Shown here in pieces: positions 1,394-20,000 of a stretch of DNA of 20,000 bases. Numbering within the stretch: the first letter of the stretch is position 1; the number at the start of each line of letters is the position of its first letter. Origin of the DNA: Catajapyx aquilonaris (lineage: Eukaryota); the NCBI GenBank assembly GCA_000934665.2, contig JYFJ02001425.1:61002-81001 (forward strand), given 5' to 3'. A program made the translations under genes and the position numbers. The notes below the pieces were generated by a model that was given only the letters and a program-made list of their open reading frames with translations, ran no database searches and was not told the DNA's origin.

Positions 1394-2048
1394 GTCAAAT
1401 GTAGTTCCTAGTTACAAATAGCGTAGGCGGAACTTCATGTACTGCTCTCTTTAGCGAACTGCACGATAGTGAGAATAAACCGCTCTTGGGAGCTGATAAA
1501 AATTCCTGCAAAGTAATTGGTGAGCTGGCCATCAACTCGTCTCATTAGCATGCACTCCTCCTTTTTGCGACCAGACAAAAACCATGGAGCGTAACTGTTT
1601 CGAAGAGCTTGACGAGCTTGAAGATCATCCTTCCTCGTTGAGACGTCAGTGGTGGAGAGGTGCTAAATGTGGCTCCATCCCTCCCTCTTTACCCTCGATT
1701 GTCCCACTCCTCCTCCACATACCACACATGATGATAAAGTGTGAGTATATGAGTGTAGGCGGCTTATGAGAACAAAAGGTCGAGAGGAGAGAGAGAGCCC
1801 AAGCAGGAAGGAAATCCTCTGCTTCCCTTAACCATCACTCGTGGACAACACAACATCAGAGAGTTGGACCATTTTTTTTTATTCGGCTTCATTATTGTTT
1901 TTTTTTTTGTCTCTCTCTTCATCTGATAGAGCGTGGTAGTTGTATACAGTAGATACAAAGGACCTTGGCGAATAGCCGACGGGGCGGGGATGCTGTCGAG
2001 AGTCGCCAATTGAGTCGGAGGGCCTCTTGTGCTGACCCACTACTCCCA

Positions 2049-3045
2049 TCACGGTTTGGGATAACCGGGACACCTAATTCGAGGGCAGCAGTGAGGGAAC
2101 TGAAGGGACAGGTTCTCGGGCTCGATCCGGCATCTCGAGTGCATCGGAAGCTTCGGAACAGGCTCGCATCTGAAGTGTATGCCAAAAAAATTAAATATTC
2201 GTCCATGCTATAGTGACATATTGTGCAATTATTGAAAAATGAGCATACCCGAATCCCCAGACGGTTCCGTTGGTGCATTTGGCTTCTTCGCATGTTGCGG
2301 TGGGCCAGGCGGTACCCGATGGGACCATCATGCCCAGTTCGGCGGCATAGCACGTGCGGAGATTCGCATGTTTTTCCCTGTTCTCCTCGGTGTCTTCCTC
2401 GTAGTAGTAGAATGTCCGGTCATCTACGGATCTGGCATACTCGGCTGCAGAGAATCCAAAATTTCGGAAATTAATATTTGGGTGTGAGTGTATGCTGTCC
2501 ATGGATTTTCAATACAGTACATTTCCGTCGCTTATAACGAATCTTTGTCGAAATTTAATTTCCAAAAAGGTCGAAAAATGTGAAAGATTTTAGGGACGGA
2601 AGGGACTCCACCATCGATGGAAGTTACGGTACTAATGTAATACCATCAGAATTGTTACTTCATCCATAAGCAAACAATGACTGTATGATGGCAACTGGAA
2701 GCTGATCACACATAAAAAGATTGATATGTCACTTGTCGCATGAGGAGAAATATACACATAAATTTATTACACGTACAATGAAACATGATCCGCACCTGAC
2801 ATCTCTTACATATAACACCATAATTATGTAACACCTTGACACATTCCAAGCCAACCAACACGGGACCCAACAGCGTTCAAGTTTTCCCGGGCCTCAAACT
2901 TGAACTTGTCAAAATGTTTCAAACTTATGAGCTAATAAATGGAATGGAACTGACCGTCGTCTTCGGACCAAATGACCGAGGGCCATCCGAGTACCAGAGT
3001 GGTACAGGCGAGGAGGAAGCAGAGTCGGAGCCAGGCCGTCATCAT
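2049..3045 (-). CDS. SVWC-domain secreted protein 1 (135 aa) with acidic N-terminal extension; exons 3045-2955, 2444-2249, 2169-2049
   Basis: MMTAWLRLCFLLACTTLVLG signal peptide; ...TCYAAELGMMVPSGTAWPTATCEEAKCTNGTVWGFGCEPVPKLPMHSRCRIEPENLSLQFPHCCPRIRCPGYPKP; 8 Cys with FPxCCPxxxC end; GT-AG introns phase 1 and 2; AATAAA at 1883-1878. Exon 1 assignment is slightly less certain (510-nt intron). Confidence 0.88.
2517..2606. mobile_element. Short degenerate MITE-like element in SVWC1 intron 1
   Basis: Imperfect inverted ends ttccgtcgctta...aatcttt / aaagattttagggacggaa, resembling the CTCCGTCCC...GGGACGGAG ends of Stowaway/mariner-type MITEs. Confidence 0.35.
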
Positions 3046-3599
3046 CTGACACAAGAGTCGGACCGAGTGTGACTGACTTGATAGTCCAAAAGAGTTGGCG
3101 GACAGGGGCTGAAAGTAGCCGGCCCTCTTCAAACAGGCTACTTACTTGTAATAGTTAAAGCAGCCAGCTATTGTTCTCAGAACGTGGTTGACGCAATGCT
3201 GTTTGATGCAGCTCAAATTTTAGAAGTGACGAATAGGATTATTTAGTCGAGTGGAATACTTTTAAAAAGTTACAGGCTACCAGTGGGTGACAAAATGTGA
3301 CATCACATTGCAATACACATACGGAAATTTTAAATGTAACTTTCTTCAAGTCCATAACAGTTCTTATTATTGGTATTACAAATGTGAAAATTATTTAATA
3401 TTTGACATTTTTGTTACTTTATGCATAATGGGACTGGTTTGCCCTTAAGAAAAAAAAGCGGTCTTTACAATTTATTATTTTGTGTCATTATCAAAAAATA
3501 TGAAAGGCTATCCGACTACTCTGATGTGACACAATGCTATTGTGGAGTATTAGCTAAGTCCATCACTAGCGACCTTGCCGCATCCTTTTGCTCTCAGAA

Positions 3600-3646
3600 T
3601 AAGGGGGCTGGTTGAGTGAGAGGGAAGGAGAGAGACCACACATGTG

Positions 3647-3680
<34 letters not shown>

Positions 3681-3963
3681 CAGAGGGCGGGGGCAGGGCC
3701 CAGGGCCGCCCCCCATCTCCCTCTCGTCCTACGCATTTCCGCCCCTGGGAGTGCGTAGTGCGTGGGGGGGCCTGATTCCTGATAGCCACTTATACTCATT
3801 TAGGGGGACGCCACATCTTCAGATACAGCTACTCAACTGCCCCTTTCAGAAAATATTGCTCTTATCAAAAGGTTACAAACATTGTTATGCAACTGGGGAC
3901 TGCCGGCTGCGACACTTTATATGCGATGGGAGCCGAGCTAAACGGGCTCCCATAAGCTCTTGA
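3600..3963 (+). mobile_element. Probable HINE/DINE-1-like (Helentron-associated) non-autonomous element, 3' portion; left boundary uncertain
   Basis: 9-bp stem hairpin ATGGGAGCC-N10-GGCTCCCAT (3926-3953) followed by AAGCTCTTGA, analogous to the DINE-1 hairpin+CTCTTG terminus; internal microsatellite and GC-rich block. Sub-terminal inverted repeat not found. Confidence 0.4.
3650..3677 (+). repeat. (AG)14 microsatellite
   Basis: Perfect dinucleotide run. Confidence 0.97.
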
Positions 3964-4791
3964 TATGTGTTGTTGATGCACGGTTCACGGTTTTTGCCAA
4001 TTAAGAATTCTTTACTCGTATACAATATGTTACGCATCTAAATCCTTGTTTTCTACTGCAAATCCATCTACAGTATACCCGGGCTTGTAGTTTTTATTTA
4101 TATAAGTGATTATGCTGTCAGTTGAAGTGTTTTCGGTTTAATTGCCCGAAAACGGTGCAAGCACTGGAGTCAGCTGCCGAATTTTACCAGCGTGTTCAAT
4201 ATTTTGCAATTACATAACAGAAACCGGCATTATGGGCATATGAAACTATCGAGGAATTTATTTTCATGTGGCACATGTTGATTGGAAAAATTAATGATAG
4301 CTTATCATAAAGGAAGTCTAATCGCAACGCGTGTCAAAAAATAAATAAATTAACTAATCACTACACTGTGGCATGAAATTCTGTATACAGTAGGTTACTC
4401 GAACATCTTGCACCCTGACGTTTTGCGCGATAACCTGCAAGGTAGACTTTGTCCGACCACCATCGTTAATATATGTTTAACATTTAATTTTTTTCCCTAA
4501 TTTCGAGGAAAGTTTATTACATCGAATATTGTCCGATATAGCGTATGTAGCACGCCTGGTGCACATATCAGTCGGAAAAAATCTTCTGGTAAATGATTCG
4601 ATTCATCCGAAAGCAGCAATACTGTAAATGCAAAGACGTGAACGGCATACATGATCAATACGAAGAAATGACGACATTTGCATAATCAGGTGATTTTCGG
4701 ACACTAACACTCGCTGATTACGCGATCATTTCAAGGCTACCTGTCACCTGATAGCTGCATCCTTTGCACCAATCAAATCAGAAGGTACCAG

Positions 4792-4864
4792 CAGGAAGGA
4801 ATCGCATAAAAATAATCACGTGTCAACAAGGAAGTCGCTCTTAAACAAAGTGACTCGATATAAA
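4792..4864 (+). promoter_or_regulatory. SVWC2 promoter: CAGGAAG (4792-4798), ATAATC (4812-4817), TATAAA (4859-4864)
   Basis: TATA box 46 nt upstream of ATG; shared motif seen in paralog promoters. Confidence 0.65.
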
Positions 4865-4909
4865 TGCAGCACATTTTAACGCCTTGTTACGAGTTACGCT
4901 CTGCTCAAG

Positions 4910-5365
4910 ATGAATCGTCCTCTGCTGGTGTTGCTATTCCTCGGCGTCTTCTTCACCATCACTGCGGGTGTACCTCGTCCGTCAGGTACGTTTTTTTGAT
5001 CTAAATGTGCTGATATCACCCTATAACACTCGCATTTTGTTGAAGCTGAAGATGCGGAAGGTGACAAGGACTACTGCATAACAGAGACCAACGAACGAAT
5101 TCCAGTTGGAACTCACTTTGACATACCTGGCGTGTGTAGACCATACTACTGCGCTGAAGGAGGTCGCATATCATGGAATGGAGTGTACGTCAAGTGGTAG
5201 TTACATTTATATTACAAAATATACTAAGGACTTAAAGTTTTCAGGTGTGATTGGCCTGGCAACCCACCAGGATGCCATATCGAGAGCCGATCGGATGAAC
5301 CGTGGCCGAGATGTTGCCCTCACCTCGTGTGTACAGAAGTTGTTACACCCAGAAGACCCCAGTAA
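4910..5365 (+). CDS. SVWC-domain secreted protein 2 (111 aa); exons 4910-4985, 5046-5184, 5245-5365
   Basis: MNRPLLVLLFLGVFFTITAG signal peptide; DYCITETNERIPVGTHFDIPGVCRPYYCAEGGRISWNGVCDWPGNPPGCHIESRSDEPWPRCCPHLVCTEVVTPRRPQ; two 60-nt GT-AG introns; AATAAA 5400-5405. Confidence 0.93.
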
Positions 5366-6070
5366 ACTGACTTGCTAACATCAGGCAATAGGCTATTAGA
5401 ATAAAGGCATGGATTAAAATCATATGTATGCTACAGTGTCATTGTTCTTCCTCATAAAAAGTTCGATCAGACAGCTGGTCCCAAGGATCACCATCTTGAC
5501 CGTAAAAAATAAGGCTAAGAAATTAATGTAATAATTGGAGGGCGGTATGGAATACATTGCACTAATCTGGTCTTAAGTGGAGGCTATTGTAAGGGCAAGA
5601 CATTCTCGGTACCACCGCATTATATAATTACACACTAAGTACTGTCTGCATTGTTTCCGCGTTGCTCTTAGTTAGTACACCTCGGTCGAGAGTGTGTGCG
5701 CACATCCTTCAAAAAATGCTTTAATGTCACTTGAAGTCTCATGATTGACAGTGCAATTGGTGAGCATAGCAGTGACATAACTGCACCAAATGGAATGCTG
5801 AGTGTTCCTTCTGACTCACTTCACACTCTTCCGGTGCGGCTTCCTCAAGGCTGCTCGAAATAGGATATATACCGCCAGCAACTTACATAACTTCTGAAGG
5901 AACCTTCTTGATTAGCCCAGGCCGTCTTGATTAATAAAAAGTCCTTCCTTAAGTAGAACTCGTCCCAAGAATGCTCCATATAGCACGATTAATGGCTCTT
6001 ACATAACTCTGTTTTGAATTTTTCCGACCTTGTAGACTCCTTTTTTCCGACATTGAGAGTATAATATTGG

Positions 6071-6091
6071 CAGGAAGCCACTTTCATTATC
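6071..6091 (+). promoter_or_regulatory. SVWC3 upstream composite motif CAGGAAG-N8-ATTATC (ETS-like + GATA)
   Basis: Same motif, orientation and distance (~110 nt before ATG) as in SVWC2, 6, 7, 8. Confidence 0.55.
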
Positions 6092-6185
6092 TGTCTTAAA
6101 ATGATGCCAGTCAAGAAAACCCAAACTGGGGCTGCAGTTATCTGGGATCTTCCCGTAAGTCGTGCGTATTAGATCCGATCACATT

Positions 6186-6762
6186 ATGCGCTTGTGCATG
6201 TTGGTTTTCTTCGCGTCTCTTCTCGCCTTGACCTCAACCAGGCCTACTGACGATGGTGAGTCCTTGCCACTGGAATTACTTGAAATTATTGGCGATTTTT
6301 TTACTTGTTTTGTTTCTACAGATACAACATGTTTCGTGCCTGGAGTTGGTGTGTTTGAAGTAGGAGAGAGATGGGAGGACCCCAGATGCATGGTGGGACT
6401 TTGCATGAGAGGAGGACTCGTTGGCTATGCCATGTTAGTTCATTATTGCACTTTAGTCATGTGAAGACTTGAATTTCAGAACGGTCACATTTTGGTCGAA
6501 ATGGTGAAATAAGCTTTGTCCAGGTCAAGGATGAGCAATATTATATGATTGGTCAATATATTTGTGAGTGATCATGGTAATGACCAAGCAATGATCTTTT
6601 TTGCAATTGCTGTCTGTACTTATTATGCTAATAATTGTGCGTCGTTTCGACAGGTGCCCGAAGCCGACCGTCCCATTTGGATGCTACGTGGAAGCTAGCC
6701 CTGGAGAGCCTTATCCGAAGTGTTGCCCTGGGCTCAGGTGTCACTTTTGGGACAACAAATAG
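6186..6762 (+). CDS. SVWC-domain secreted protein 3 (96 aa); exons 6186-6255, 6322-6433, 6654-6762
   Basis: MRLCMLVFFASLLALTST signal peptide; TCFVPGVGVFEVGERWEDPRCMVGLCMRGGLVGYAMCPKPTVPFGCYVEASPGEPYPKCCPGLRCHFWDNK; 8 Cys; GT-AG introns phase 1 and 2. Confidence 0.93.
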
Positions 6763-7504
6763 ACGTAATAATTATTCAGCAGCCACATTTGACCGTGTAA
6801 TTAACTCACACGCGAAAATATATTTTGCTTTACAATGAACGATGATGTCTGGGTGACTGACACTGTATAAATTGTTATGCGCTGCTAAAGTCCCCAGTTC
6901 AAGGGGGGAGGTATTTGGGAAACTTATTTGCACATATCGCTTTCATTTCTCTGATGACCTCGTATAGTTCTCCTTACTGATATGTTTTGTGAGAATAGGA
7001 TATCAAGGTCAAAATTTTCAATGAATCGGAATGAGCTGTTTTAATAATGTTTCGCAAGAGTTTCTGTCACCATTGGGCGTTGCTATGTTGATGGGAATAT
7101 TGTGGCCAATATATCGTTGTTGCACTAATCACCCGGTCGAAGGAAGGTCATTTTAATGCTGAAGTCAGCAGACAACGACTCTTCTTGATGATTCCGAAAT
7201 CAAAGTATAGACTTGCTTGCATTTGTCGCTGAATGACCTGACCCCAAGTGATCGGCATTACTCACTGATATTTATTATCATAAGAAACATTCATGGAGAA
7301 TCAGCATGCAGCAGTCGCAATGAAATCAATATTGTAAATATTTGAGAGGTAATTACAATAAGTACTGTACTACGTACTTGCTATATTTTGTGGCATGTGT
7401 CATACGCTTATAATGACACAAAAATAATATTTAAAGCTGTGTGGCCAGAGAGTATACAAGTAGCCAATATTACGAATTAAAGTGATTTATGTGACGAAGT
7501 TACA

Positions 7505-8253
7505 TCATTTCTTTCCGAGATGATCTTCCACAGGGCACAGCACGTGAGGACAGCAATCTGGATATTGCCCCTCGCCATACTCGATGAGGCAGCCATGTTT
7601 GGCCTCAGGCCAGTCGCAACTGAAATATATTATTGGCAAATTATTATTTATCCTGCAGTGAGCCATATGTAGCAGCAGAATAATATGTTGTGGACGGATC
7701 ATTTTGCCATTACCAACCACAAGGTTACATACGTATCTAATAGGTATTAAATAAATTATACAGTATGTGCAAAGAATAATTATGCTTCATAGGTAACTGA
7801 TGCTCAAGACATATAACAAGTAGTAACGACAATGTGAACAATTCAGTTGGAACTCCTTGCATAAAATCTGCTTATGCATACAAACTATAATTATACTATA
7901 TCAGTACTTACCTTCCCGCTTCCTTTGCATGCCCGCCTTCTTCACACGCGTACATCACACATAGGCCAGGTTCATGAAACACATGTCCAACCGGGACGAG
8001 TTCATTTTTGGAAGTGGTGCAATACCCACGAAGATCCGTATCTGTATATGCATAAATGGGGAATATAATTTTCTTAGTCCCTAATTATATTATTCGATGA
8101 CAGGTTATTCATTGGGAATAGCAATAGATATCGCGACCAATTATTATTTTCCTCACTGCGAATCTTACCATGATGGCCATGCTTGCGCGGGAAGGCTCTG
8201 GCAATGTGTAAAACTATGGCTAAGGCAACGAGGAGAAGCAGAGAACGAGCCAT
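7505..8253 (-). CDS. SVWC-domain secreted protein 4 (109 aa); exons 8253-8169, 8041-7912, 7619-7505
   Basis: MARSLLLLVALAIVLHIARA signal peptide; FPRKHGHHDTDLRGYCTTSKNELVPVGHVFHEPGLCVMYACEEGGHAKEAGSCDWPEAKHGCLIEYGEGQYPDCCPHVLCPVEDHLGKK; consensus gtaag donors. Confidence 0.93.
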
Positions 8254-8278
8254 CTTGTCAGAATCCAAAGCTGCAGTC

Positions 8279-8315
8279 AACTGAAATGGCAACGAACTCA
8301 AATGTCCTTTTAAAA
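8279..8315 (-). promoter_or_regulatory. SVWC4 core promoter: TATA-like TTTAAAA (~8314-8308) and arthropod initiator TCAGTT (8284-8279)
   Basis: Canonical Inr about 25-30 nt downstream of an AT-rich box and 26 nt before the ATG. Confidence 0.55.
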
Positions 8316-8561
8316 GGCTGCTGTGACCATCCAATTATTTCTCCTCTCCGCCCACTTTCGATTATTATCGGTTACAAGGTGTATCCATTAGAACTTTGAC
8401 AAAGATATCAGTATAGCTCATTAACGTTTCCGGAATGCCACCTTCCCCTGCTGGTTTATTGACAGGTTGGTAATGCATAAACTTATAGGATTGTATGTAT
8501 CAAAAATAGACTATTGTCACTTCGGCTATATGGTTTTTACCGCAGTGTTATGGCCAATGCC

Positions 8562-8636
8562 TGCTGCACTTGCAGTATAGCTGATGCAACGTTATTACGA
8601 GGCGAATGTTGCATCAGCTACACTGCAAGTGCAACA
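8562..8636. repeat. 75-nt hairpin: 32-bp inverted repeat (3 mismatches) with 11-nt loop
   Basis: tgctgcacttgcagtatagctgatgcaacgtt (8562-8593) versus aatgttgcatcagctacactgcaagtgcaaca (8605-8636). Confidence 0.9.
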
Positions 8637-8738
8637 ACGTATTTCAGTGCATATTTTTATTCAAGAAGCGACGCGACGAGACGTACAGTACACCTCGCAT
8701 ATAATTATGTGCATTATGTAAATGCATCTACTTATCCT

Positions 8739-9035
8739 CTAGTCACATTTCAAATAAGGACAGGAATATGGGAACTTCCCGCCTTCGGATTGCACAATGT
8801 GGCAGCCACAGGTTCGAAGCTAGGGCACGAGCTAGGGTATTCACAGCTGAAAAATATGTGTAGTGCGGACCTATTGATTCGGGTTGATTTAGGAATAAGA
8901 AGGGATCATTAGGGCCTAAACTTTCAATGCATGGCGTATATGTTTCCAGGCAGCGAAAGACCTTGCATATTCCTGGCACGTAATATTCCTGGCCCACAGG
9001 GATACATACTCTTCAGTCTCCATCACTGTCTGTCT
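8739..9035 (-). pseudogene. SVWC pseudogene (copy 5); exon 2 remnant 9035-8921, exon 3 remnant 8846-8739
   Basis: IPVGQEYYVPGICKVFRC and CEYPS..FEP/GCHIVQSEGGKFPYSCPYLKCD* are clearly paralogous; in-frame TGA 9015-9013, expected phase-2 donor reads TT instead of GT, exon 3 has a 12-nt duplication plus 2-nt frameshift, CC changed to SC, no recognisable signal-peptide exon. Confidence 0.85.
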
Positions 9036-9711
9036 CTGAAATATTGTAATCAGTGAACCAATTAGGTAAATAATATTGCGCAGGAAAGACGCGGGGTAAT
9101 CTCACATGTAGCAGGCCTAACTTCCTATACAGATGATTTTGTAGCTGATTTTGTCGATGTGGCGAGAACCTGCGCTCTCTCTGACGGATTGCTTGTTCAT
9201 CGTTATCCATTTCCCTTTTTTATTTTATATCCTCTTCTGTAATTTTTCTTGTCCGGAAAGATACGAGTTTCATGCAGAATGTGACATTCCATAAAATGCG
9301 TGACCATTAAAAGGTTGCACAATTGGCTCAATTTTGCAGGATGTTGAAGGAGGCGCAATTGGTATTTTTATTCAGCTTGATTTATTTGTGTAACAGAATA
9401 AGTGGGCGAGTATGTGTGCGAGTATATTCCATTAAATACCTCTGAAACCTTTTTGCATAACAAAGGCACATCTATGGAATAGTTTATAATTATAATATAA
9501 AACTAATAGCGGTGCCAGTTCTAAACCATTCAAGTGCAAATTAAGATTTTGGTCCGATGTGAGTTCCCAACATAGCATCTATATAGAGATAATTTTTATC
9601 ATATGCTGAACTTTAATATATCCTATTGATAATAGTTTAATTAAACGAATGTAAAACAAATTTCCCTCGAAGTATTGTGTAGATAGTTGGTGACTAGAAG
9701 GCTATTTCCTG

Positions 9712-10219
9712 TCAGACATTATTTTGTTCCAGAAGGTCGGTTTCTTCGAGATTGTCACACACCTCTTGAGGACAACATTCCGGCCACTGTCCGCCACCAT
9801 TTTCGACGATGTGGCATCCAGGTTTGGCGTCACGCCAGCCACAACTGCAATAACATATTGCATGTTATATAATATGATACAGAAAGGTGTTATTACACGG
9901 TTTTCTCACTGTATACTGTTGTCCTTACTTACATGCCCGATCTCACTATATTCCCGTCTTCTTCACATCTGTACAACGCGCACCTTCCAGGCATATGGAA
10001 GGCTTGACCAGCTGGTATGTGTACATTTTCTAATACGACGCAGTATTTTCGGTTTCTTTCGTCGCCTATAGCAAGTAATTAGGGAATCTGATAAACTGAA
10101 TTAAAGTAGTCCTTATACCTCCTATCCACAAGAGTGTTACCGTTATCAGGGCGAGGGATGGCTCCAACAGTGCTGATGACCAATGTGAAAGCAAGCAGGC
10201 ACAGCAGAAAACGGTTCAT
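9712..10219 (-). CDS. SVWC-domain secreted protein 6 (114 aa); exons 10219-10141, 10065-9933, 9844-9712
   Basis: MNRFLLCLLAFTLVISTVGA signal peptide; KYCVVLENVHIPAGQAFHMPGRCALYRCEEDGNIVRSGICGWRDAKPGCHIVENGGGQWPECCPQEVCDNLEETDLLEQNNV; GT-AG introns; entirely missed by the ORF track. Confidence 0.93.
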
Positions 10220-10688
10220 ATTGGCTGGACTAACAAATATAATGTGACAACAATTTACATCCCCGTGATAATAATTATTGTCAGGTCCACTTCAGGCTGT
10301 AAGCTGATGATTAGCTCACTGCCTTCCTGTTGGATTTCCTGGCTGATACCTGGTGTTGCACAGCTGACTCAACAGCAATGTGTATACAAAATGATTAAGA
10401 ATCACAATAATTTATCAACAACACTGATGATAATGGTTTTTAAAAAATAAGCCTGGTTTATAATAGCATCCTGGTCATCAACTTAATACATTGAAAATAT
10501 AATTTTGTAGACGTCATATGTATTAGCCTCAGAAATACTTTTATTCAAAGAGTAGGATAAACTACAGTACAATGACGAAAGGAGAAATGCTTATTAAGAA
10601 GAATAAGAAAGTTTCGGGAAGTTTTACATGAGTTGTCTTGTACGGCCCTTAATATACCTGTAGGCCTATTAATTCGTCAAAGGTCTTC

Positions 10689-11174
10689 TTATACATCATT
10701 GTCACACACCACATGAGGACAGCATTTTGGCCAAGGTCCGTTGCCATACTCGATGTGACATCCAAATTCAGCGTGAGGCCAGCCACAACTGTCAATTATT
10801 CAAAGTTAATATTGCAGTATACAATTATTAGACTATCAGTATTTATATGCATGGTACTACGGTTTATTAGAAAGATGGCATTGCGTTGCTCTACCTACGT
10901 TGCCACTGGATAAATGCGGAGTTCTTCATCGCACCATAACAGCCTGCATGCTTCAGGGTCGGGAAACTGCTGTCCCGCGGGGAACTGCTGTCCTCCAGGC
11001 ATTACGCAGTACCCTTGGTCGTTCTCATCTTCTGAAGTGCAATAATTATTATAGTAGCATAAGACAACATTGTGGTACACAAGAGCGTGGACTAATCCCA
11101 CCTGGAGCGGGGAGGGCCTCCAGATAATTGAAAGCAATGGTAAAAACCAGCAGGATAATCAGAGGACGACTCAT
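10689..11174 (-). CDS. SVWC-domain secreted protein 7 (101 aa); exons 11174-11102, 11031-10899, 10788-10689
   Basis: MSRPLIILLVFTIAFNYLEA signal peptide; GYCVMPGGQQFPAGQQFPDPEACRLLWCDEELRIYPVATCGWPHAEFGCHIEYGNGPWPKCCPHVVCDNDV; AATAAA 10545-10540. Confidence 0.93.
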
Positions 11175-11177
11175 CTC

Positions 11178-11284
11178 GACTGAATTCAAAGTCAGAGTAA
11201 GGCAAATATTTATCTTTTTTATAGCCGGGGTAGTCTCCCCTGTTGCAAGCTGCAGGCTGGTGATAATTTAACAGCTTCTTCCTG
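11178..11284 (-). promoter_or_regulatory. SVWC7 promoter: CAGGAAG (11284-11278), ATTATC (11267-11262), TATAAAA (~11223-11217), Inr-like TCAGTC (11183-11178)
   Basis: Ordered set of core and upstream motifs shared with paralogs. Confidence 0.65.
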
Positions 11285-11674
11285 CTGTTGATCTGATATT
11301 GTCGAGTACGACAATACCCGAATGCCATGATGCTAAATTATTTACTGTATCAATCTGGCAAACGACGTAGTTAAATGCGGTCGGAAATCGGCTCATTTTT
11401 GTCACCCAGGGTAAGCAGATTTGTTGATCTTAGGTATAATTGACGTCAGTCATTCAGAAATCAATAAAGCTATTTATTGAACGAGCATGATACGAAATGG
11501 AGAAACTTTCTACAATTGCACACAAGCAGTGCATATTTTAAAATAAGAATATGCAAGATATGTAGATGAAAGACGATGTAAGAGCATACTAAATAAGAGT
11601 TAGTGAGTGTCAGGTAAAGGAGTGGTTGAGAGGTGTGCCGCTGGAGCATATATTAATTTTCCGGGAGTAGGTCT

Positions 11675-12148
11675 TCATTCTTCATCTTCACACACCACAT
11701 AAGGGCAGCAGTCTGGGAAATCTCCTGAGCCATACTCCACGTCACAGCCAGGTCCAAAATGTGGCCAGTCACACCTGCAATGAAAGTTTGTTTTAGATAC
11801 GTATAACTTATAGATAATACTACTGATTATAGTATAGTCTATGGAAGTTTAGAGTATACAATATTTGTTATTTAGAGGGATGATAGTACTCACGTTGCAA
11901 TTAGCAAGGGTCCGTAATCCTTGCACATAAAAAGAGCGCATTGGTCTGGCTCGTGAAATTTCTGACCCACGGGGATGTGATCCCCAGCAGAAGTTACGCA
12001 GGATTTCTCATCACCTGAAAGTTCAATTAGTGTAACAAATAGGCACATTTTCTGAGTAGGCCAATATAATCTGACCTTGATCAGGGAGGGCCCCAACGGA
12101 ACTAAGGGCAATGGCAACAGCCAACAGGAACAGCACAAGACGACCCAT
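11675..12148 (-). CDS. SVWC-domain secreted protein 8 (97 aa); exons 12148-12076, 12014-11894, 11774-11675
   Basis: MGRLVLFLLAVAIALSSVGA signal peptide; KSCVTSAGDHIPVGQKFHEPDQCALFMCKDYGPLLIATCDWPHFGPGCDVEYGSGDFPDCCPYVVCEDEE; AATAAA 11478-11473. Confidence 0.93.
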
Positions 12149-12158
12149 CTCCACTGTT

Positions 12159-12268
12159 GACTGAATCCAGAGTGAAAATAAGCTGAAACAGCGACACTTA
12201 TTTATTGGGCCTATCTTTTTCTGCCAGGATGCAAATTACTAGGACAGCGATAATTTTGCAGCTTCCTG
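12159..12268 (-). promoter_or_regulatory. SVWC8 promoter: CAGGAAG (12268-12262), ATTATC (12254-12249), AT-rich box (~12205-12198), Inr-like TCAGTC (12164-12159)
   Basis: Same motif order as SVWC7. Confidence 0.6.
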
Positions 12269-13120
12269 CTAACGATTTTGTATAGGCCTGATATCTAATA
12301 TTTATATTATTTTCAGCCTCCATACAAATAGCCGAACTCCATATAATATAAAACACAAAAATGCAGCAAACGACAGCGGTATAGCAATATTACAATATTA
12401 TTTTTCAATGTGGGATACACATTTCTGACTTTTAAGACGTCCAACGGAAGCTATTGCGTCCGTTGTATTTTCATTGTCATCGTCACAGTCACACACTTGA
12501 CCTTTCCTCCACTACTTATGCATCGCTAAGGTAAAATCATGACTTTTGTGACTCAGTGTTGCTTTTTTACATGGCTATATACCGCACTGAATTATTGGAC
12601 AAGTTTCTTGTCAGATGCATGATAACCTACCAGGACTTACAGTTAGCTACATAGTCAGCTAGTCTTTGCTGTGTGTTGCGTACTCATTATATCGTTAGGC
12701 TGCTTATTTTAATCAACAAATGAGAGGATAGTATTTTGCATCCTCAGGGATTTATACCCCACAGGGTATGAGGTGAGCACGCGTACATACCGTATACCTC
12801 TTGATAATAGTGAATTTGAATTAGAACTACAGTATTTTTAATATTGTGCAATCATGCTGGGTTGACACGTCTTCTGTATTCCCGTCAACTTCACTTTAAA
12901 ATTGAGAGTCAAAATTCCGGAGATGGTTGTGGATATAGACCTGCACAATTAAGCGTGTGGAATAATAGCAACAACAAGCTAGGAGCTCTTCTAATTTTAT
13001 TCTGAATAATATTATTATAATCCCTTTCGCTCAAGTAACAGAAATAATGTGTTTTATATGATGAGACACAAAAAATTTAACGAGTCGTAAGGCATCTTCT
13101 AATCAGTGTGTATGTCCCGT

Positions 13121-15767
13121 TCAGCAATGGGCACTTGTTTCTGAAATGTAAAGTCGCAGTAATAATAATCGCAAATAGATAAGTTAATTTATGAAATGGA
13201 GAAACATGCCGACCTTTTGAGCAGGTCAGCGTGTCGTTCTGATGCATGAAACCATCTGGACAAACACAAGATACTTTTGATGACCTCTCGTTGATTTGAG
13301 GCGCTGCAAGGCAGAGATGAGAACATAACCTGTTTCTGTTATCCAGGCAGTAATTGATTCCTTCTGGTTGACGCAGTTTGTGATAAATCAGAACCGGGCT
13401 GTGGGGCTGTAACGGCATGAATGAGTGATGGTATGTGCAAATGAAAAAAAAAACAACTCCAGTACAATAGCATAAATGCTTACTCTGGTTGAGCGTAGTC
13501 GAGTAACGTTTTCACCATTAAATTTGTTCGCTTTATAAACTACGCCATCCACATGTGTCCAATATATCCAATCTTCAAAGGTGGAAACACTAGTAGAAAA
13601 TGGCCGATTCAAATTAGTGCCGTGACCAATGATGACTTGTCTCTTGGATCCGTCATAGTTGCAGGAAGAAACGACACGTTGCGTGAGGTCCACGTAGTAT
13701 ATTTTTTTAAAGACTAGGTCCAGTGTCAAGCCGACGGGTTGTGCGTCCACATTAGACACGATGGTGTGACGACGAGTTCCGTCCATTCCTGCCCTTTCAA
13801 TTACACCACTTGGTCCGTTTTTGGTGTCCATATTGTTTGTCCAGTACATCCATCTGTGAACATCCAACACAGTAGATACCGATATGCCCATATAGTGCGC
13901 TCTATCATGAAGGTGTACAAATAGCACTTACCCGTCTAATGGATTAACAGCGATAGATGTCGGTTTCACGAGACTGCCCCAAAACAGCTTCTTCTCATTC
14001 CTTCCATCCAAGTCGGCAACTGAAAGCGTGTTTTTCTCAGAGTCTGTCCAGTATATGTGACTATAAATCCAGTCCACTGCAAGACGCACACTTCTGGTCG
14101 TGCCTGACAAGATCACATCAGCGATTGTGCTTCGGTTATCAATGGAAGCCCTAGAGGTTTAAAGCGGAGGGAATAACTGGCGAGTCACGGTGACAATATA
14201 CCACAGACAATCTCTTAAGGAGCCCTGACGGCCCTGACACACCGTCTTATCACAATGCCATACCTTAGCCTATTTAAACCCTTGCCAACTGCAGCTTACA
14301 TACCTGCGGATATAATAACTATTGACGCCAAACTCGTAGTTCCAGAATACTATTCCTTGAGCATAGTCATAGTCCATGGCAGTTATTTGGGAGGTGGGGG
14401 GTATCTTCACAACAGGCTTTTCAATGTCGTCAGCGTCCAGTGACACCAGCTTGATGTCATTGTGCTGGATCATGAGTGAGGCACTTTCTGCAGCCTTGCA
14501 TCTGGACTGGTCTTCTGTTTCCGCCTGGTAAGGGGCCTGGCATTCGCACCTGAAGCTTCCTGGACTGTTTATGCATGTCTGGGAGCAGATGCCTAGTATG
14601 TCGCACTCGTCCACATCTGAAAGTAATATCACAGTGAATGTTGCAGACAGCAATATTTTCTCGTTGATGATGACACTTTTACCTTCACATGTGCCGTTCC
14701 CCACTAGTGTGAACCCTTCATTGCATTCGCACTGAATCCCTTCCCGAGTGCCAACGCATATCTGGGAGCATCCTCCATTGTTGTCTCTGCACTGGTCGCA
14801 GCAAATCTCGTTGTTTTCGTCCTCCCAGTTTCCGCAGTCGTTATTCTGGTCGCAGGTCTTGTTCAGAGGAATGCACATGCCTCTTTTGCAACTGAACTCG
14901 TTTTCACCGCAGTGGGTGCTAGGAATGGCTGAAAAACGAGTTAATGTGACATGTTGTATGTGACAGTTAGGTACGCAATATAATGCTTATAGCCTACTGC
15001 AGTTTTCTTCGTCACTTCCATCTTGGCAATTGGTACTTCCATCGCATTGCTTTAGGCCATCAAAACACTCCTTGTTGTTGCTGCACTGGAACTGGTCAGG
15101 GCGACATGTTAAATAAGGTAAGCAACTTATGTGGGTTTCATCCGAATTATCGTCGCAGTCTCTCAAACCATCGCACTTCCATCTGCTGGGAATGCACCAT
15201 TTGCCATCAGCACAGGGAAATGTTCCCTCACCACAACCACGACAGGGCTAAAATGATAACGTATAATGTGATCACACACAGTAGTACCGGTGCTGACAAG
15301 GATTTATTACGATATAATATTAGTTGCCATTATTGAATTCCTGCCTATAGAGACAGGCATTTATTGGAAAATGAAAGGTGGAGAAAAGGCTTGCCTGGTG
15401 TTCATCCGAATTATCGTCGCAGTCTCTTGCTCTATCGCACACCCATCTGCTGGGAATGCACCTTTTGCCGTCAGCACAGCGAAATGTTCCCCCAACACAA
15501 CCACGACAGGGCTAAAATGATAACGTAATGTGATCACTCACAGTAAGTAACGGTGCTGACAAGGATTTATTACGATATAATATTTAGTTGCCATTATTGA
15601 ATTCCTGACTAGAGACCGATATTCATTGGAAAATAAAAGGTGAGAATATAGACTTGCCTCTTCATCTGAACCATCTTGACAGTCTCTGTCATTGTCACAC
15701 AAATAGGCTCTTCGTATGCACTTTTCTCCATTCTTGCACGCAAATTGATCCACTTGACAAACAACTG

Positions 15768-15838
<71 letters not shown>

Positions 15839-18705
15839 TTTAATGAGAATTAAATGTTGCAGGCAGATGCTCACATGCAGAGTTATTATTATATTTCTGT
15901 AAAAGTTACTATGGCTGTCTTGCATAAAACATGCACTTATGATTCTTATGTTGCTGGTGAAATTATTACTACCGTATTACCTCACTCGACCTCACCATGC
16001 CGGTGTAGTCGAGGTCGACCAGATTTTTAAAATGCACGATCTGGTGGCCATACTGGCATGCCGGTCTAAGCGAGGTATGCCGGCATAAGGCGAGGTTTCA
16101 CAGCATATAATTATTATAACGATCTCAGTGAATATTATTATTTCTCAAATGAATGCATTGCATCATGTTCTACGGTGCGGATACAGCCCAAGACACATTT
16201 ATTACCTGTTACGTCCCATAAGATCGTTCGTTAAGTCCATATTCACAGCAACATTACAATTATTCAAAGTACAAGGCTGCAAGAAGGGAAGCATACCCAC
16301 CAGGATATTTCATACGCTGGGTTTGAATTTTATTATCTGAGTGACGAGGTTTCTCAGACATTGATACCACTACCGTGACTACTCAAAGTGATTCTCTGAA
16401 TGCCAACGTGATCTACGACCAGCCAACTATTGAGGAATACGAAGGACTGAACGACTGAAGGAATTTGCCTGAATCCTCTGTAATGTTTAGGGGGGTTCCC
16501 CTCTCAGAGGAAGCTGAATATAAGATTGATGGTCACACTCTGTGGTCTATGGCCTATGAAACATAATTATGAACTTGCATATTCTCACAGCCCTACCCTC
16601 GCATATTTTTCACTTTAACATTATTTTAGTACAGTACCAGATGCATTCCAAAAAATTTGACAAGGATCAAAACTAAATTATTGAAATCTACCTCGGTTAT
16701 TGCGGCATTTCCGGCCACCCCCAGGTTATACCACCATGCTGGTCGACCTCGTTTTATTCCCGCATGCCGCTTTATATGAGGTAATACGGTAATAAGGGTT
16801 ATAGTTGTAGATCGGCACTGGTTTTTCACTGTGCCTTGTGTAAAGTATAAATGTTACTAGCAGAAACAATAGGAGATCCACGGTAAACATTTTTCCAGGT
16901 GGGGTATAACTCACATCAGAATGCTGTATATAGGTGTACAGTACATATAGTTATCAGACCCTAGATATGTTTAGTATATAATTAGGCTATACAGTCATAT
17001 TCTTAGCAAGTATTATATACGACGTTAAAAAGGGAATGAAGGAGGAATTAAATGAAAAAGAATAAAAATGAAGCATAGAACGCTCAAAGCCCATAGAAAT
17101 GAATCGGCGAATGAAGGCACTATATAATATTATGATCTGTCATGAACCTTAAAGTCACCCGCCTGCGAGTGGTGCAAAATATTTTCAGAAAGTGAAAGGA
17201 GTTTGATAGATGCGCCTCTGCCAGGCCAATGGAATGGAACTACTGCATAACACCATTCGCATGTGGGTTGTACTGTAAATATTTAATAATTATCAGCACT
17301 CTGACCATTAAAGAGGATTATTTTAGTGACCCTATTTCACCCACGTGAGTAATACTCCATGAATGGAGTTTATTATTAAGACTCACCTGAGGAATTTGCT
17401 CCGGTGAAGAGATGAGGGCCGAAGAAAGTTATCTGCCATACAATGCCAAATCCAAAGGGAATGAAAAGAATTTGTTTCATCCTGAATAATTACAAGCTGC
17501 AAAGAAAGTTCAAAAGTAAGAATAATGACATCTTTACAACGTTGGCACATTTCTACTGTAAATAGTTGTACAAGCACAATACCATATTTTTCAGTTGGTA
17601 GAAACATGATATTATCTCTATTCTAAAGCATTTCAATTGGGATGCGTTTATGGATTGAAGAAGGTCGCTATGAGCATAAAAATGCATCGAGTAGCTTTGT
17701 TTTTTTGTTGTATATTAAAGTGGATATTCGCAACGCTAAATTCAATTTGTCAAAGAATTGAGTAGGCTACGTGATATTTACTTTCTGCCCTGGAAATCCT
17801 CAAAAATCCTTGTCAAAGATGCATTTACTGGACGCCCTGTGTGCTTGTCTGAATTTTTTAAATGCCCAGAAATTGTCCTGGCCGTAGAATAGGCCAATAA
17901 CAAATTTGAAACATGTCCTTTCTCACAAGCTCCTCAAGCTGACATATGTTTATACAGTGGTGTTTCCACCTCTTGCGACCCAATAAAAAGTGTTTAGTCC
18001 GAGGTTTAGTCATACCAACAACACAGAATTCATCTTTTATATTAGTTGTTAAAACAACTTAATGTCGACATAAACGAATATAGGCTACTACCTGAAACAA
18101 TTGCTGATCCTCACTCGACAGTAAGCCCCCCAGACAAAAGCAATTTAACAACGACCATACCCCAAATTTATCGCTCTTTTAAATATCTGAAGCAGATAGT
18201 ACTAGTAGTGTATTCGTCTATGACTATGTAATAACTGGTAATAACAAAGCATGATAAAGCGGAGAAACCTGATATTGAATTGACGCATTGTGTCAAAAAA
18301 TTGCGATGGCATAATGTTAGATTTTACATTATGGGAATTTGTGTAGTCTAATAATGAGGAACCTAATAAAATATAATTATTATACAATATATAGGTTCAT
18401 TAAAATACATTACATGAATAGGTGTGAAGATTGAAGCTTACTCCAATTTACTTGAAGCACAGGGGAAGGGAACGCTATCTTAATGAAATGGTATGGAATG
18501 TCCGATAATGGCTAATTATTAGAAGTGAATGGAATAATTAATTAATGCCAAATCAAGATGAAGCGCTAGTTGTCTTAGTCTAGTAATTCAGTTGTTGAAA
18601 CATGTTTCGTGGTGTTACAAAGGTTACATATTAATTAATGTAATGTAACTTAATTGAAATTAGCAATAATAATTTGAACACCGACTCAGCCAGCACTTAC
18701 CTCAT
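13121..18705 (-). CDS. Lipophorin receptor/VLDLR-like LDL-receptor family protein, ~644 aa, predicted secreted (signal peptide, 5 LA repeats, EGF-A, EGF-B, YWTD propeller, EGF-C, no TM); exons 18705-18701, 17481-17387, 15764-15658, 15511-15395, 15247-14998, 14928-14683, 14616-14304, 14150-13932, 13853-13484, 13406-13214, 13140-13121
   Basis: LA motifs (e.g. [14 protein letters not shown]), DVDEC Ca-binding [30 protein letters not shown], and [25 protein letters not shown] typical of arthropod LpR; all exon phases join into one open frame (1935 nt). Core exons 15764-13214 are high confidence; first two and last exons are less certain (alternative start ATG at 17480). Confidence 0.85.
15135..15657 (-). 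repeat. Tandem duplication of an intron+LA exon unit (~263 nt; 15657-15395 and 15394-~15135)
   Basis: Both introns and exons align closely (e.g. ggtgctgacaaggatttattacgatataatatt in both; exons differ at 12 of 111 nt). Confidence 0.92.
15769..15837 (+). repeat. (AAT)23 microsatellite abutting the LA1 splice acceptor
   Basis: Perfect trinucleotide run; explains the spurious poly-Tyr ORF. Confidence 0.97.
15970..16107 (+). mobile_element. MITE-like element, TA-CCGTA-type end (pogo/Tigger/mariner-like)
   Basis: Starts taccgtattacctca, internal catgccgg/cgaggt sub-repeats, degenerate right end; homologous inverted copy at 16685-16791. Confidence 0.6.
16685..16791 (-). mobile_element. Second, inverted copy of the same MITE family
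   Basis: tgaggtaatacggta (16777-16791) is the exact reverse complement of 15970-15984; ctggtcgacctc (16739-16750) matches 16011-16022 at identical 41-nt offset. Confidence 0.6.
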
Positions 18706-19947
18706 CACCCACGTCGACCCTGCAGTAACTAGAGTATTACTAAAAACCGAAGAAATTCACCGACAGGGTGAGCAGATTGACCCAAAGTGTCCGGAAGGGC
18801 CAAAGCAAGTACTGGACACTTGCATAGTGCATACGGCAAATATGTACTACGACCAATTCGGTCCAACCCGCCTCCTCCACTAGTGTCACCCTCGTATCTA
18901 TATCTCACACCTCCTTGTGGTTCCTGTCCACACCACACGCCTCGATTCGTCTTTCATGTCAGCGGGGAATTACCCACGGGCTGACCACAGCAAAATGCAA
19001 GGCAAAATGTGACGATATAGGATCGGAAGCAAAATACAATATGCTTCGGAGAGTTTTGCTGCACTGATGAAAGTACAGTATAATTGTATATTATGCTACA
19101 CAGGATTCTCGAAGTGACTAGGTACCCCATCGTGAATAGCAAACTTTTACGAGATTACGACTCTTTCCAGCCATTTTTATTGCATTTTTAAGGGTGCTGC
19201 AACCGGACCTTATAGTGGCGAAATATTTCAGACAAGGAACACATCTGGAGGCCCAAGTTAAAACCCCGTATCTTCGAAAATCACGTAAATGGATATTAAT
19301 GCACCAATATAATGCTGCACTCCTCTTTGCAAGCCACACATGTTGGTACAGTACAAAGCCCGTAACTGTAGGAGCAACCCTTACAAAGTTTTGGCCAATT
19401 GAAATCATGCCCTTTCATAATATACGGTAATGGAAGAAAAACACTTCAAACGCGACTATCTCGATATGACAAAAGGCAGAGAGATACAAGGTTTTGACTT
19501 GGGGCATCAGACATGCTATCAGTGAGTAACTTAGGGACCCCTTTTCCATAATCATCTAGTATAACGGACCCAGCTTCAAGAAGAAAAGGATTGAAAGGAT
19601 TGCCAGAAAATAATATCAACAATGTAACCAATTAAAGGACACTGCTGTATTTACTTGCGGCAAGGTAGATATAGGTATAAACTACCATTAATATAAATTA
19701 TTATACAGTATAATTATGTACAGTATATGTATATTATAAATTATGTTACTGTACACAGTGTGAGTATACTGTTTAGTGTATATTGTATGATACTCATATA
19801 CGTGTAACCTTCAACATAAAATTCACAGCACTGAAGCTGGAGAACAATCGTGCTTGCCGGTAGCAGTCGGCTAAAGGAGTATGTTATTACCAGACCCCTA
19901 ACCAAGAAATTAGCCTCCAACAGAGGTGCTGCCTAGGGGAGTGAGAT

Positions 19948-19998
19948 TTATTGTATCAGGGGGAAGAACAGAGGTGCTGCTTCCCCCTGATACAATAA
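19948..19998. repeat. Perfect 19-bp inverted repeat with 13-nt loop at window edge
   Basis: ttattgtatcagggggaag (19948-19966) / cttccccctgatacaataa (19980-19998). Confidence 0.93.
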
Positions 19999-20000
19999 GT

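Follow-up and report, generated by a model that had tools for sequence, protein, structure and literature searches.

A lipophorin-receptor-type gene of Catajapyx aquilonaris with an early stop after its third EGF module probably encodes a soluble ectodomain

We analysed a stretch of 20,000 nucleotides from Catajapyx aquilonaris (GenBank assembly GCA_000934665.2, contig JYFJ02001425.1, positions 61,002 to 81,001 of the forward strand), which is further called the window and is numbered from its first letter. On its minus strand lies a ten-exon gene of the LDL-receptor family, extending from 17480 to approximately 12985. By sequence it resembles lipophorin receptors: its best named matches are insect lipophorin/VLDL receptors. 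Our reading, which we hold to be rather probable, is that the gene yields an mRNA for a lipophorin-receptor-type ectodomain, with a stop six codons after the third EGF module (EGF-C), and that the product is secreted and soluble. The components of this reading differ in strength. It is very probable that the main product has no membrane anchor, and predictions from its sequence make secretion likely. That it acts on lipophorin or other ligands of LA repeats as their trap or modulator, as analogy suggests, is a tentative idea that may well prove wrong.

Results

Gene structure and domain content

The ten exons have canonical splice sites and form a single continuous frame of 636 + 6 open codons, giving a spliced product of 642 residues (Table 1). 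The DNA of the window is eukaryotic, and its introns are short (66-153 nt inside the receptor-like gene). Pfam was searched with single-exon translations. The ligand-binding part typical of the LDLR/VLDLR/lipophorin-receptor group is present as Ldl_recept_a matches on exons 2-5, together with the cysteines and the DxSDE/NWEDE motifs of the calcium cage. The EGF-precursor part follows as FXa_inhibition, EGF_CA, Ldl_recept_b and again FXa_inhibition, in this order along exons 5-9 and colinear with four insect receptors. LA repeat 5 is of the NWEDE type, like the last LA repeat of insect lipophorin receptors in the alignment.

Exon 1 is one of two candidates in a scan of 15765-20000 for hydrophobic exons that begin with ATG and end in a phase-1 donor. 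It begins with Met followed by a hydrophobic core, and it alone combines an N-terminal position of this core with a donor match of 8/9.

Two introns of this gene are of the GC-AG type, with GC at 15656-15657 (after exon 2) and 15393-15394 (after exon 3); the second was inherited via a tandem duplication. Both junctions lie outside the contig cover of the transcript run described below.

Table 1. Coordinates of the receptor-like gene and of other features in the window
Feature	Position	Strand	Content	Evidence
Exon 1	17387..17480	-	ATG and predicted signal peptide, 31 residues; phase-1 donor CAG/GTGAGT	sequence only
Exon 2	15658..15764	-	LA repeat 1; GC donor GAG/GCAAGT	Pfam Ldl_recept_a E=1.7e-12; exon model
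Exon 3	15395..15511	-	LA repeat 2; GC donor CAG/GCAAGC; copy 1 of 264-bp tandem duplication	Pfam Ldl_recept_a E=1.2e-12; TRF
Exon 4	14998..15247	-	LA repeats 3 and 4	Pfam Ldl_recept_a E=8.6e-23, 2 stretches; joint 14998/14928
Exon 5	14683..14928	-	LA repeat 5 and EGF-A	Pfam Ldl_recept_a 7.2e-10, FXa_inhibition 1.8e-09; joints 14928/14998, 14683/14616; alignment
Exon 6	14304..14616	-	calcium-binding EGF-B and start of YWTD propeller	Pfam EGF_CA 2.2e-07; contig covers 14303-14616
Exon 7	13932..14150	-	propeller blades	Pfam Ldl_recept_b 2.1e-08; joint 13932/13853
Exon 8	13484..13853	-	propeller blades	Pfam Ldl_recept_b 1.2e-08; contig; 45-55% identity to insect lipophorin/VLDL receptors
Exon 9	13214..13406	-	propeller end and EGF-C; ends in phase 1	Pfam FXa_inhibition 6.5e-08; joints 13484/13406, 13214/13140
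73-nt intron	13141..13213	-	GT..AG	joint skipping 73 nt (CT..AC on + strand); translation; hydropathy
Terminal exon 10	12985..13140	-	ETSAHC, TGA 13123-13121, 3' untranslated region with AATAAA 13001-12996	sequence; 156-nt contig block
Transposon-like element, ~830 bp	15966-16795		in intron 1; 19-nt terminal inverted repeats, 95% complementary	
SVWC gene	~1872-3109	-		
SVWC gene	5060-5338	+		
SVWC gene	6250-6744	+		
SVWC gene	8021-7523	-		
SVWC gene	9003-8926	-	N-half only	
SVWC gene	10066-9745	-		
SVWC gene	11100-10695	-		
SVWC gene	12148-11675	-		

The early stop and its transcript

The donor after EGF-C (GT 13213-13212, AAAAG/GTCGGC) is in phase 1. Splicing to the acceptor AG at 13142-13141 makes 13140 the first base of the next exon, whose reading is G/AA ACA AGT GCC CAT TGC TGA, that is, ETSAHC and a stop. 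The AATAAA listed in Table 1 is the only one available to this terminal exon, and cleavage would take place about 135 nt beyond the stop. A second acceptor (AG 12942-12941) leads to GLYPQPSPEF and then to a stop after 10 codons. An initial annotation of this DNA had proposed both of these endings; its coordinates for donor, acceptors, stop and AATAAA were all reproduced on the minus strand, the stop within 10 codons behind the acceptor near 12941 proved correct, and the ETSAHC ending is supported by the sequence as well as by a transcript joint (13214/13140). As a rule, a stop codon in the last exon spares an mRNA from nonsense-mediated decay. Here the final junction precedes the stop by 18 nt, so such decay is not expected and the message should be stable.

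Transcript evidence comes from one public run (X1) of unrecorded type, available as contigs, which contains 0.57 of the sampled words and was mapped onto the whole window. Its 13 joints, found at the receptor-like gene and at neighbouring small genes, all have GT..AG or CT..AC ends. Because the contigs are spliced and every joint has such ends, we treated the run as RNA. Five joints match predicted introns of the receptor-like gene (14998/14928, 14683/14616, 13932/13853, 13484/13406 and 13214/13140). One contig of 938 nt is particularly informative, as it consists of 14150-13932 (219 nt), 13853-13484 (370), 13406-13214 (193) and 13140-12985 (156), with no letters left over. The 73-nt intron is thus removed from it, and its end at 12985 lies 11 nt past the AATAAA. 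Cleavage would be expected at about this distance from the sole AATAAA, so the contig end fits polyadenylation at this place, although contigs cannot prove the end of an RNA. From exon 4 to the 3' end, save for the join of exons 6 and 7, the exon structure, the splice to the early stop and the domain content are direct observations. The initial annotation had also considered that the gene may be silent, or that transcripts splice from 13214 to a downstream exon with a helix or NPxY; a spliced RNA contig is present in X1, and the only joint from 13214 leads to 13140.

The exon 6-7 junction (14151-14303), a 153-nt intron, is the sole internal junction from exon 4 to the 3' end that is left unbridged. 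Contigs end at 14303 and begin at 14150, which may reflect low depth or a variant. Window bins uncovered by X1 (12007-12673, 15342-16008 and 17343-18676) were not used as evidence.

Another observation concerns the same donor. Downstream of the receptor-like gene lie genes for SVWC (single von Willebrand C, Vago-like) proteins. The donor at 13213 and the acceptor of exon 2 in the next of them (12015/12014) are both of phase 1, so that a read-through splice would give an in-frame fusion of receptor and SVWC. No joint of this kind is listed in X1, where the SVWC gene concerned has no cover.

Search for a membrane anchor and a tail

None of the features that follow the ectodomain in the LDLR family, that is, stalk, membrane helix and NPxY, was found for this gene within the window. 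The minus-strand frames below 13213 are free of NPxY. A search of the window in six frames yielded just two such motifs, at 16800 and 16323, and both are upstream of the LA exons. When four full-length insect receptors, including their last 150 residues, were used as tblastn queries (E<=10), they matched the LA, EGF and propeller exons and gave no tail or membrane-helix match downstream of 13213. Further, 13213-12150, reaching up to the next gene (ATG 12148-12146), contains no hydrophobic 19-mer with a usable acceptor. These three scans agree, for the window, with the statement of the initial annotation that no intact helix or FDNPVY exon precedes the promoter of the nearest SVWC gene.

Two candidates were rejected. 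A hydrophobic open reading frame at 12391-12320, the sole hydrophobic stretch from 13213 down to the next gene, has no in-frame AG acceptor, lies in AT-rich intergenic DNA and is followed by no tail motif. A receptor-tail-like match at 16890-16777 (a hydrophobic run and NPYY; E 1.3-4.4 with 3/4 queries) is a chance product located upstream, in intron 1. The codons of its NPYY (16800-16789) overlap a 19-nt terminal inverted repeat at 16777-16795, paired with 15966-15984, of a transposon-like element. The transposon terminus and a short hydrophobic run thus mimic a receptor helix and tail in tblastn. The element is repeated in the genome, because a contig runs into a diverged copy of it (loose end 16710).

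If the 73-nt intron is retained, the frame reads through for 45 codons and ends with TTR before a stop at 13079-13077. A mean hydropathy of about 1.6 is the usual cut-off for a membrane helix. The best 19-residue Kyte-Doolittle mean in the retained stretch, which is also the best outside the signal peptide, is 1.34, versus 3.34 for the helix of the Locusta receptor. The hydrophobic run comprises 15 residues and is a translation of the T-rich, pyrimidine-rich acceptor tract of the intron. The anchored isoform that the initial annotation had kept in reserve therefore appears weak, the more so as the contig lacks the intron.

Relation to insect lipophorin and VLDL receptors

With exon 8 as query, 224 proteins with E<=0.001 were found among 911 candidates, and the best 120 of the 224 were listed; insect lipophorin/VLDL-type receptors show 45-55% identity. 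The spliced core of 636 residues aligns through its residues 33-634 with insect receptors at 41-47% identity over approximately 600 residues. The best match (47% identity, 494 bits) ends at residue 750/883 of the subject, hence the stalk, helix and tail of the latter have no counterpart. Among the named relatives compared were the lipophorin receptors of Locusta migratoria (P0012) and Blattella germanica (P0016) and VLDLR isoform X4 of Cryptotermes (P0013).

The insect receptors share the module order of the window protein: LA cluster, EGF-A, EGF-B, YWTD propeller and EGF-C. In a five-sequence alignment, four insect receptors share 62 invariant cysteine columns. The window protein has 48 of them, and the 14 that it lacks all belong to LA modules absent here. 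Calcium-cage acids are likewise kept in the retained modules. LA4 and LA5 correspond to repeats 7 and 8 of the insect receptors, including TCRPDQFQC and the NWEDE calcium cage. In contrast to the four aligned receptors, which possess seven or eight LA repeats, the window protein has five, and it lacks the stalk, membrane helix and FDNPVY tail of insect receptors.

Of the 120 listed matches, 23 are without helix and NPxY. These turned out to be LRP5/6-type proteins, fragments or models ending in intron read-through, with no clear anchorless receptor among them. For the 144-residue genomic open reading frame around exon 9, the search returned two candidates, none of them significant, and no match of near length.

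The window protein also differs from insect receptors by two extra cysteines. Cys 233 (window ~14785) lies between LA5 and EGF-A (EIC-C-DQC), and Cys 642 (13126-13124) is the last residue. It is pure conjecture that they might pair with each other or form a covalent dimer.

Duplication of an LA exon

LA2 and LA3 stem from a young tandem duplication of an intron and an LA exon (window 15137-15659; TRF period 264, 2 copies, 88% identical). The duplicate copy in exon 4 lost its donor and reads through into LA4. The two LA exons differ at 15/117 sites, corresponding to nine replacement codons and one silent; the introns of the duplicated units differ at 13/143 aligned sites, and the comparison of exon and intron gives a Fisher p = 0.42. 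None of the changed codons (0/10, p = 0.0018) falls on the 16 structural positions of the LA consensus (six Cys, the calcium cage and the F/I/W core). Small as the sample is, this argues that the LA fold has been under selection since the duplication. The duplicated exons give no proof of positive selection, because pN/pS is about 1.2 and divergence of exons and introns does not differ significantly.

Neighbouring genes and other features of the window

The eight SVWC genes occupy window ~1872-12148 on both strands, downstream of the receptor-like gene, which stands head-to-tail with their cluster. Most have spliced contigs in X1, and one of these contigs reaches a word depth of ~1130. The matches of Pfam SVWC to each half-exon stay below the family cut-off (E 0.007).

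At one end of the window, 1-1300 is GC-richer (0.49) and harbours a highly covered contig (552-859, depth ~150); long open reading frames of 1-1300 have no Pfam match. At the opposite end, many loose ends from different contigs meet at 19903-19964 (in 19900-20000), as they would at a dispersed repeat.

Discussion

Several facts weigh against a soluble receptor made by a functional gene. Some YWTD motifs are degenerate (FWNY, YWTN, YYVD, YWTH), unlike those of the insect receptors. The end branch of the protein is far longer than that of any insect receptor in the tree, 8.47 versus a median of 0.35, in a quick and unfinished tree with unsettled placement. Close orthologs are missing from the best 120 of the 224 exon 8 matches, where identity reaches 55% at most. 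The gene may be a fast-evolving derivative, or may come from a lineage far from the sampled insects. The duplicated LA exons have similar pN (0.133) and pS (0.109), with no significant difference, which does not demonstrate constraint overall. Further, there is a single transcript source, whose type is unrecorded and whose contigs drop rare isoforms and leave the 3' end unproven. The joins 1-2, 2-3, 3-4 and 6-7 are not among the joints listed in X1 and exon 1 has no contig, so that the 5' part and the signal-peptide exon are read from the genomic sequence alone.

Part of these facts would suit an incomplete copy of a lipophorin-receptor gene, from which the 3' exons were lost and which is transcribed without function, on its way to a pseudogene. 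The six-codon ending resembles former intron or stalk sequence, and the reduced number of LA repeats, degenerate YWTD motifs, similar pN and pS, very long branch and missing ortholog (among the listed exon 8 matches and for the exon 9 frame) all point in this direction. We nevertheless regard such decay as unlikely. Structural LA positions are untouched by the changes after duplication, all 642 codons are open over ten exons, splice sites are intact and spliced RNA is present, which together point to a gene in working order and not to a copy in decay; the modules still present have lost neither the calcium-cage acids nor any of their 48 structural cysteines, and a proper AATAAA stands at the contig end. 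We ascribe a similarly low probability to another explanation, in which the soluble form is one isoform only and the donor at 13213 also splices past the SVWC cluster to exons for stalk, helix and NPxY that lie to the left of the window. Rare variants are dropped from contigs, the inspected sequence is that of the window only, and soluble forms of vertebrate relatives arise by splicing or, according to PMC1635701, by proteolysis of anchored receptors. Such long-range splicing would, however, have to pass 13 kb of downstream DNA in which no receptor-tail exon was found and both strands carry SVWC genes, eight in all and transcribed separately. The sole joint from 13214 leads to 13140, in a contig that ends just behind the AATAAA. 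Moreover, just five LA repeats and a very long branch are unlike the tightly conserved canonical receptors.

Two further possibilities concern the fate of the protein. An isoform retaining the 73-nt intron might be held in the membrane by the 15-residue hydrophobic run followed by RNK, thus forming a tail-less surface receptor. The in-frame read-through and the basic residues after the run agree with this, but the low hydropathy, the shortness of a run that is merely a translated acceptor tract and the removal of the intron in the contig make such an anchor scarcely credible. The protein could also stay inside the cell, as the excerpt of PMC13193390 reports for a tick LDLR-related protein (LRP) without membrane domain, which promotes lipophagy; the lack of RNA support for exon 1 would be in line with that. 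Still, exon 1 encodes an N-terminal signal sequence of the typical kind and has a strong donor in the matching phase, the 51 cysteines in LA and EGF modules call for the secretory pathway, and the tick protein has no propeller while the window protein has one. We consider intracellular residence very improbable.

The mechanism that we favour, a secreted ectodomain, can be described as follows. Transcription of the gene (17480-12985, minus strand) would give an mRNA whose frame stops six codons past the third EGF module, and the RNA would be cleaved and polyadenylated ~135 nt after the stop. The 642-residue product would comprise a predicted signal peptide, five calcium-cage LA repeats, EGF-A, EGF-B, the YWTD propeller and EGF-C, without O-glycosylated stalk, membrane helix or NPxY endocytosis motif. 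Cysteine-rich modules of the LA and EGF kinds depend on the oxidising secretory pathway. Because a signal peptide is predicted for the product and 51 of its cysteines lie in such modules, we suppose that it enters this pathway and is released as a soluble lipophorin-receptor-type ectodomain. The soluble forms of LDLR, VLDLR and ApoER2 suggest by analogy that, outside the cell, the LA repeats of the product might bind the usual lysine-presenting ligands, such as lipophorin, other LA ligands and possibly virus glycoproteins. Rather than taking up ligand itself, the soluble ectodomain would compete with membrane-bound receptors or deliver to them. The initial annotation had called the gene a paralog and its product a dedicated carrier or decoy; these terms are putative here, a carrier or decoy role being suggested by the analogy with soluble vertebrate receptors.

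Soluble forms of LDLR-family proteins are already known. Like the window product, soluble vertebrate LDLR, VLDLR, ApoER2 and LRP are membrane-free ligand-binding ectodomains. According to excerpts of PMC1635701, proteolysis (shedding, furin cleavage) of anchored receptors is the source of the vertebrate soluble forms, and soluble ApoER2 acts as a dominant negative that keeps ligand from binding to the full-length receptors. An excerpt of PMC9980337 describes soluble LDL receptor as antiviral, its surface counterpart being the entry receptor of vesicular stomatitis virus. The window gene differs from the vertebrate cases in that its only transcript seen ends in a terminal exon of its own with its own poly(A) signal, and in that no anchor exons are near it. 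Among arthropods, the excerpt of PMC13193390 presents an anchorless LRP of hard ticks (Haemaphysalis longicornis, with homologs in Dermacentor and Ixodes), likewise an LDLR-family protein encoded without membrane domain. As described there, it consists of LDLa and EGF modules only, without YWTD module, and is intracellular and STAT-regulated. The window protein, with its complete receptor ectodomain and predicted signal peptide, differs in module content from this tick type. Full-text literature searches found no description of a lipophorin receptor with complete ectodomain but no anchor, the nearest being the tick LRP without propeller. What seems to be new here is an anchorless full ectodomain that is apparently fixed in the structure of the gene.

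A further-reaching proposal takes the neighbourhood into account. The receptor-like gene might encode a humoral factor, an inducible extracellular ligand trap working with the eight neighbouring SVWC (Vago-like) genes, which would catch viruses or toxins that enter via LA repeats, or retune lipophorin delivery during infection or starvation. We regard this as speculative and decidedly improbable. If it were true, the gene would be an arthropod counterpart of the mammalian antiviral soluble LDL receptor, and the fast-changing LA surfaces, with nine replacement changes against one silent and structural residues untouched, would reflect an arms race.

Arthropods take up lipid mainly through lipophorin/VLDL-type receptors, and relatives of the latter serve several viruses as entry receptors. 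A gene for the ectodomain only would supply a circulating binder of the ligands of lipophorin/VLDL-type receptors. With it the animal could weaken or reroute its uptake of lipoproteins, or intercept ligands and pathogens whose docking sites are LA repeats.

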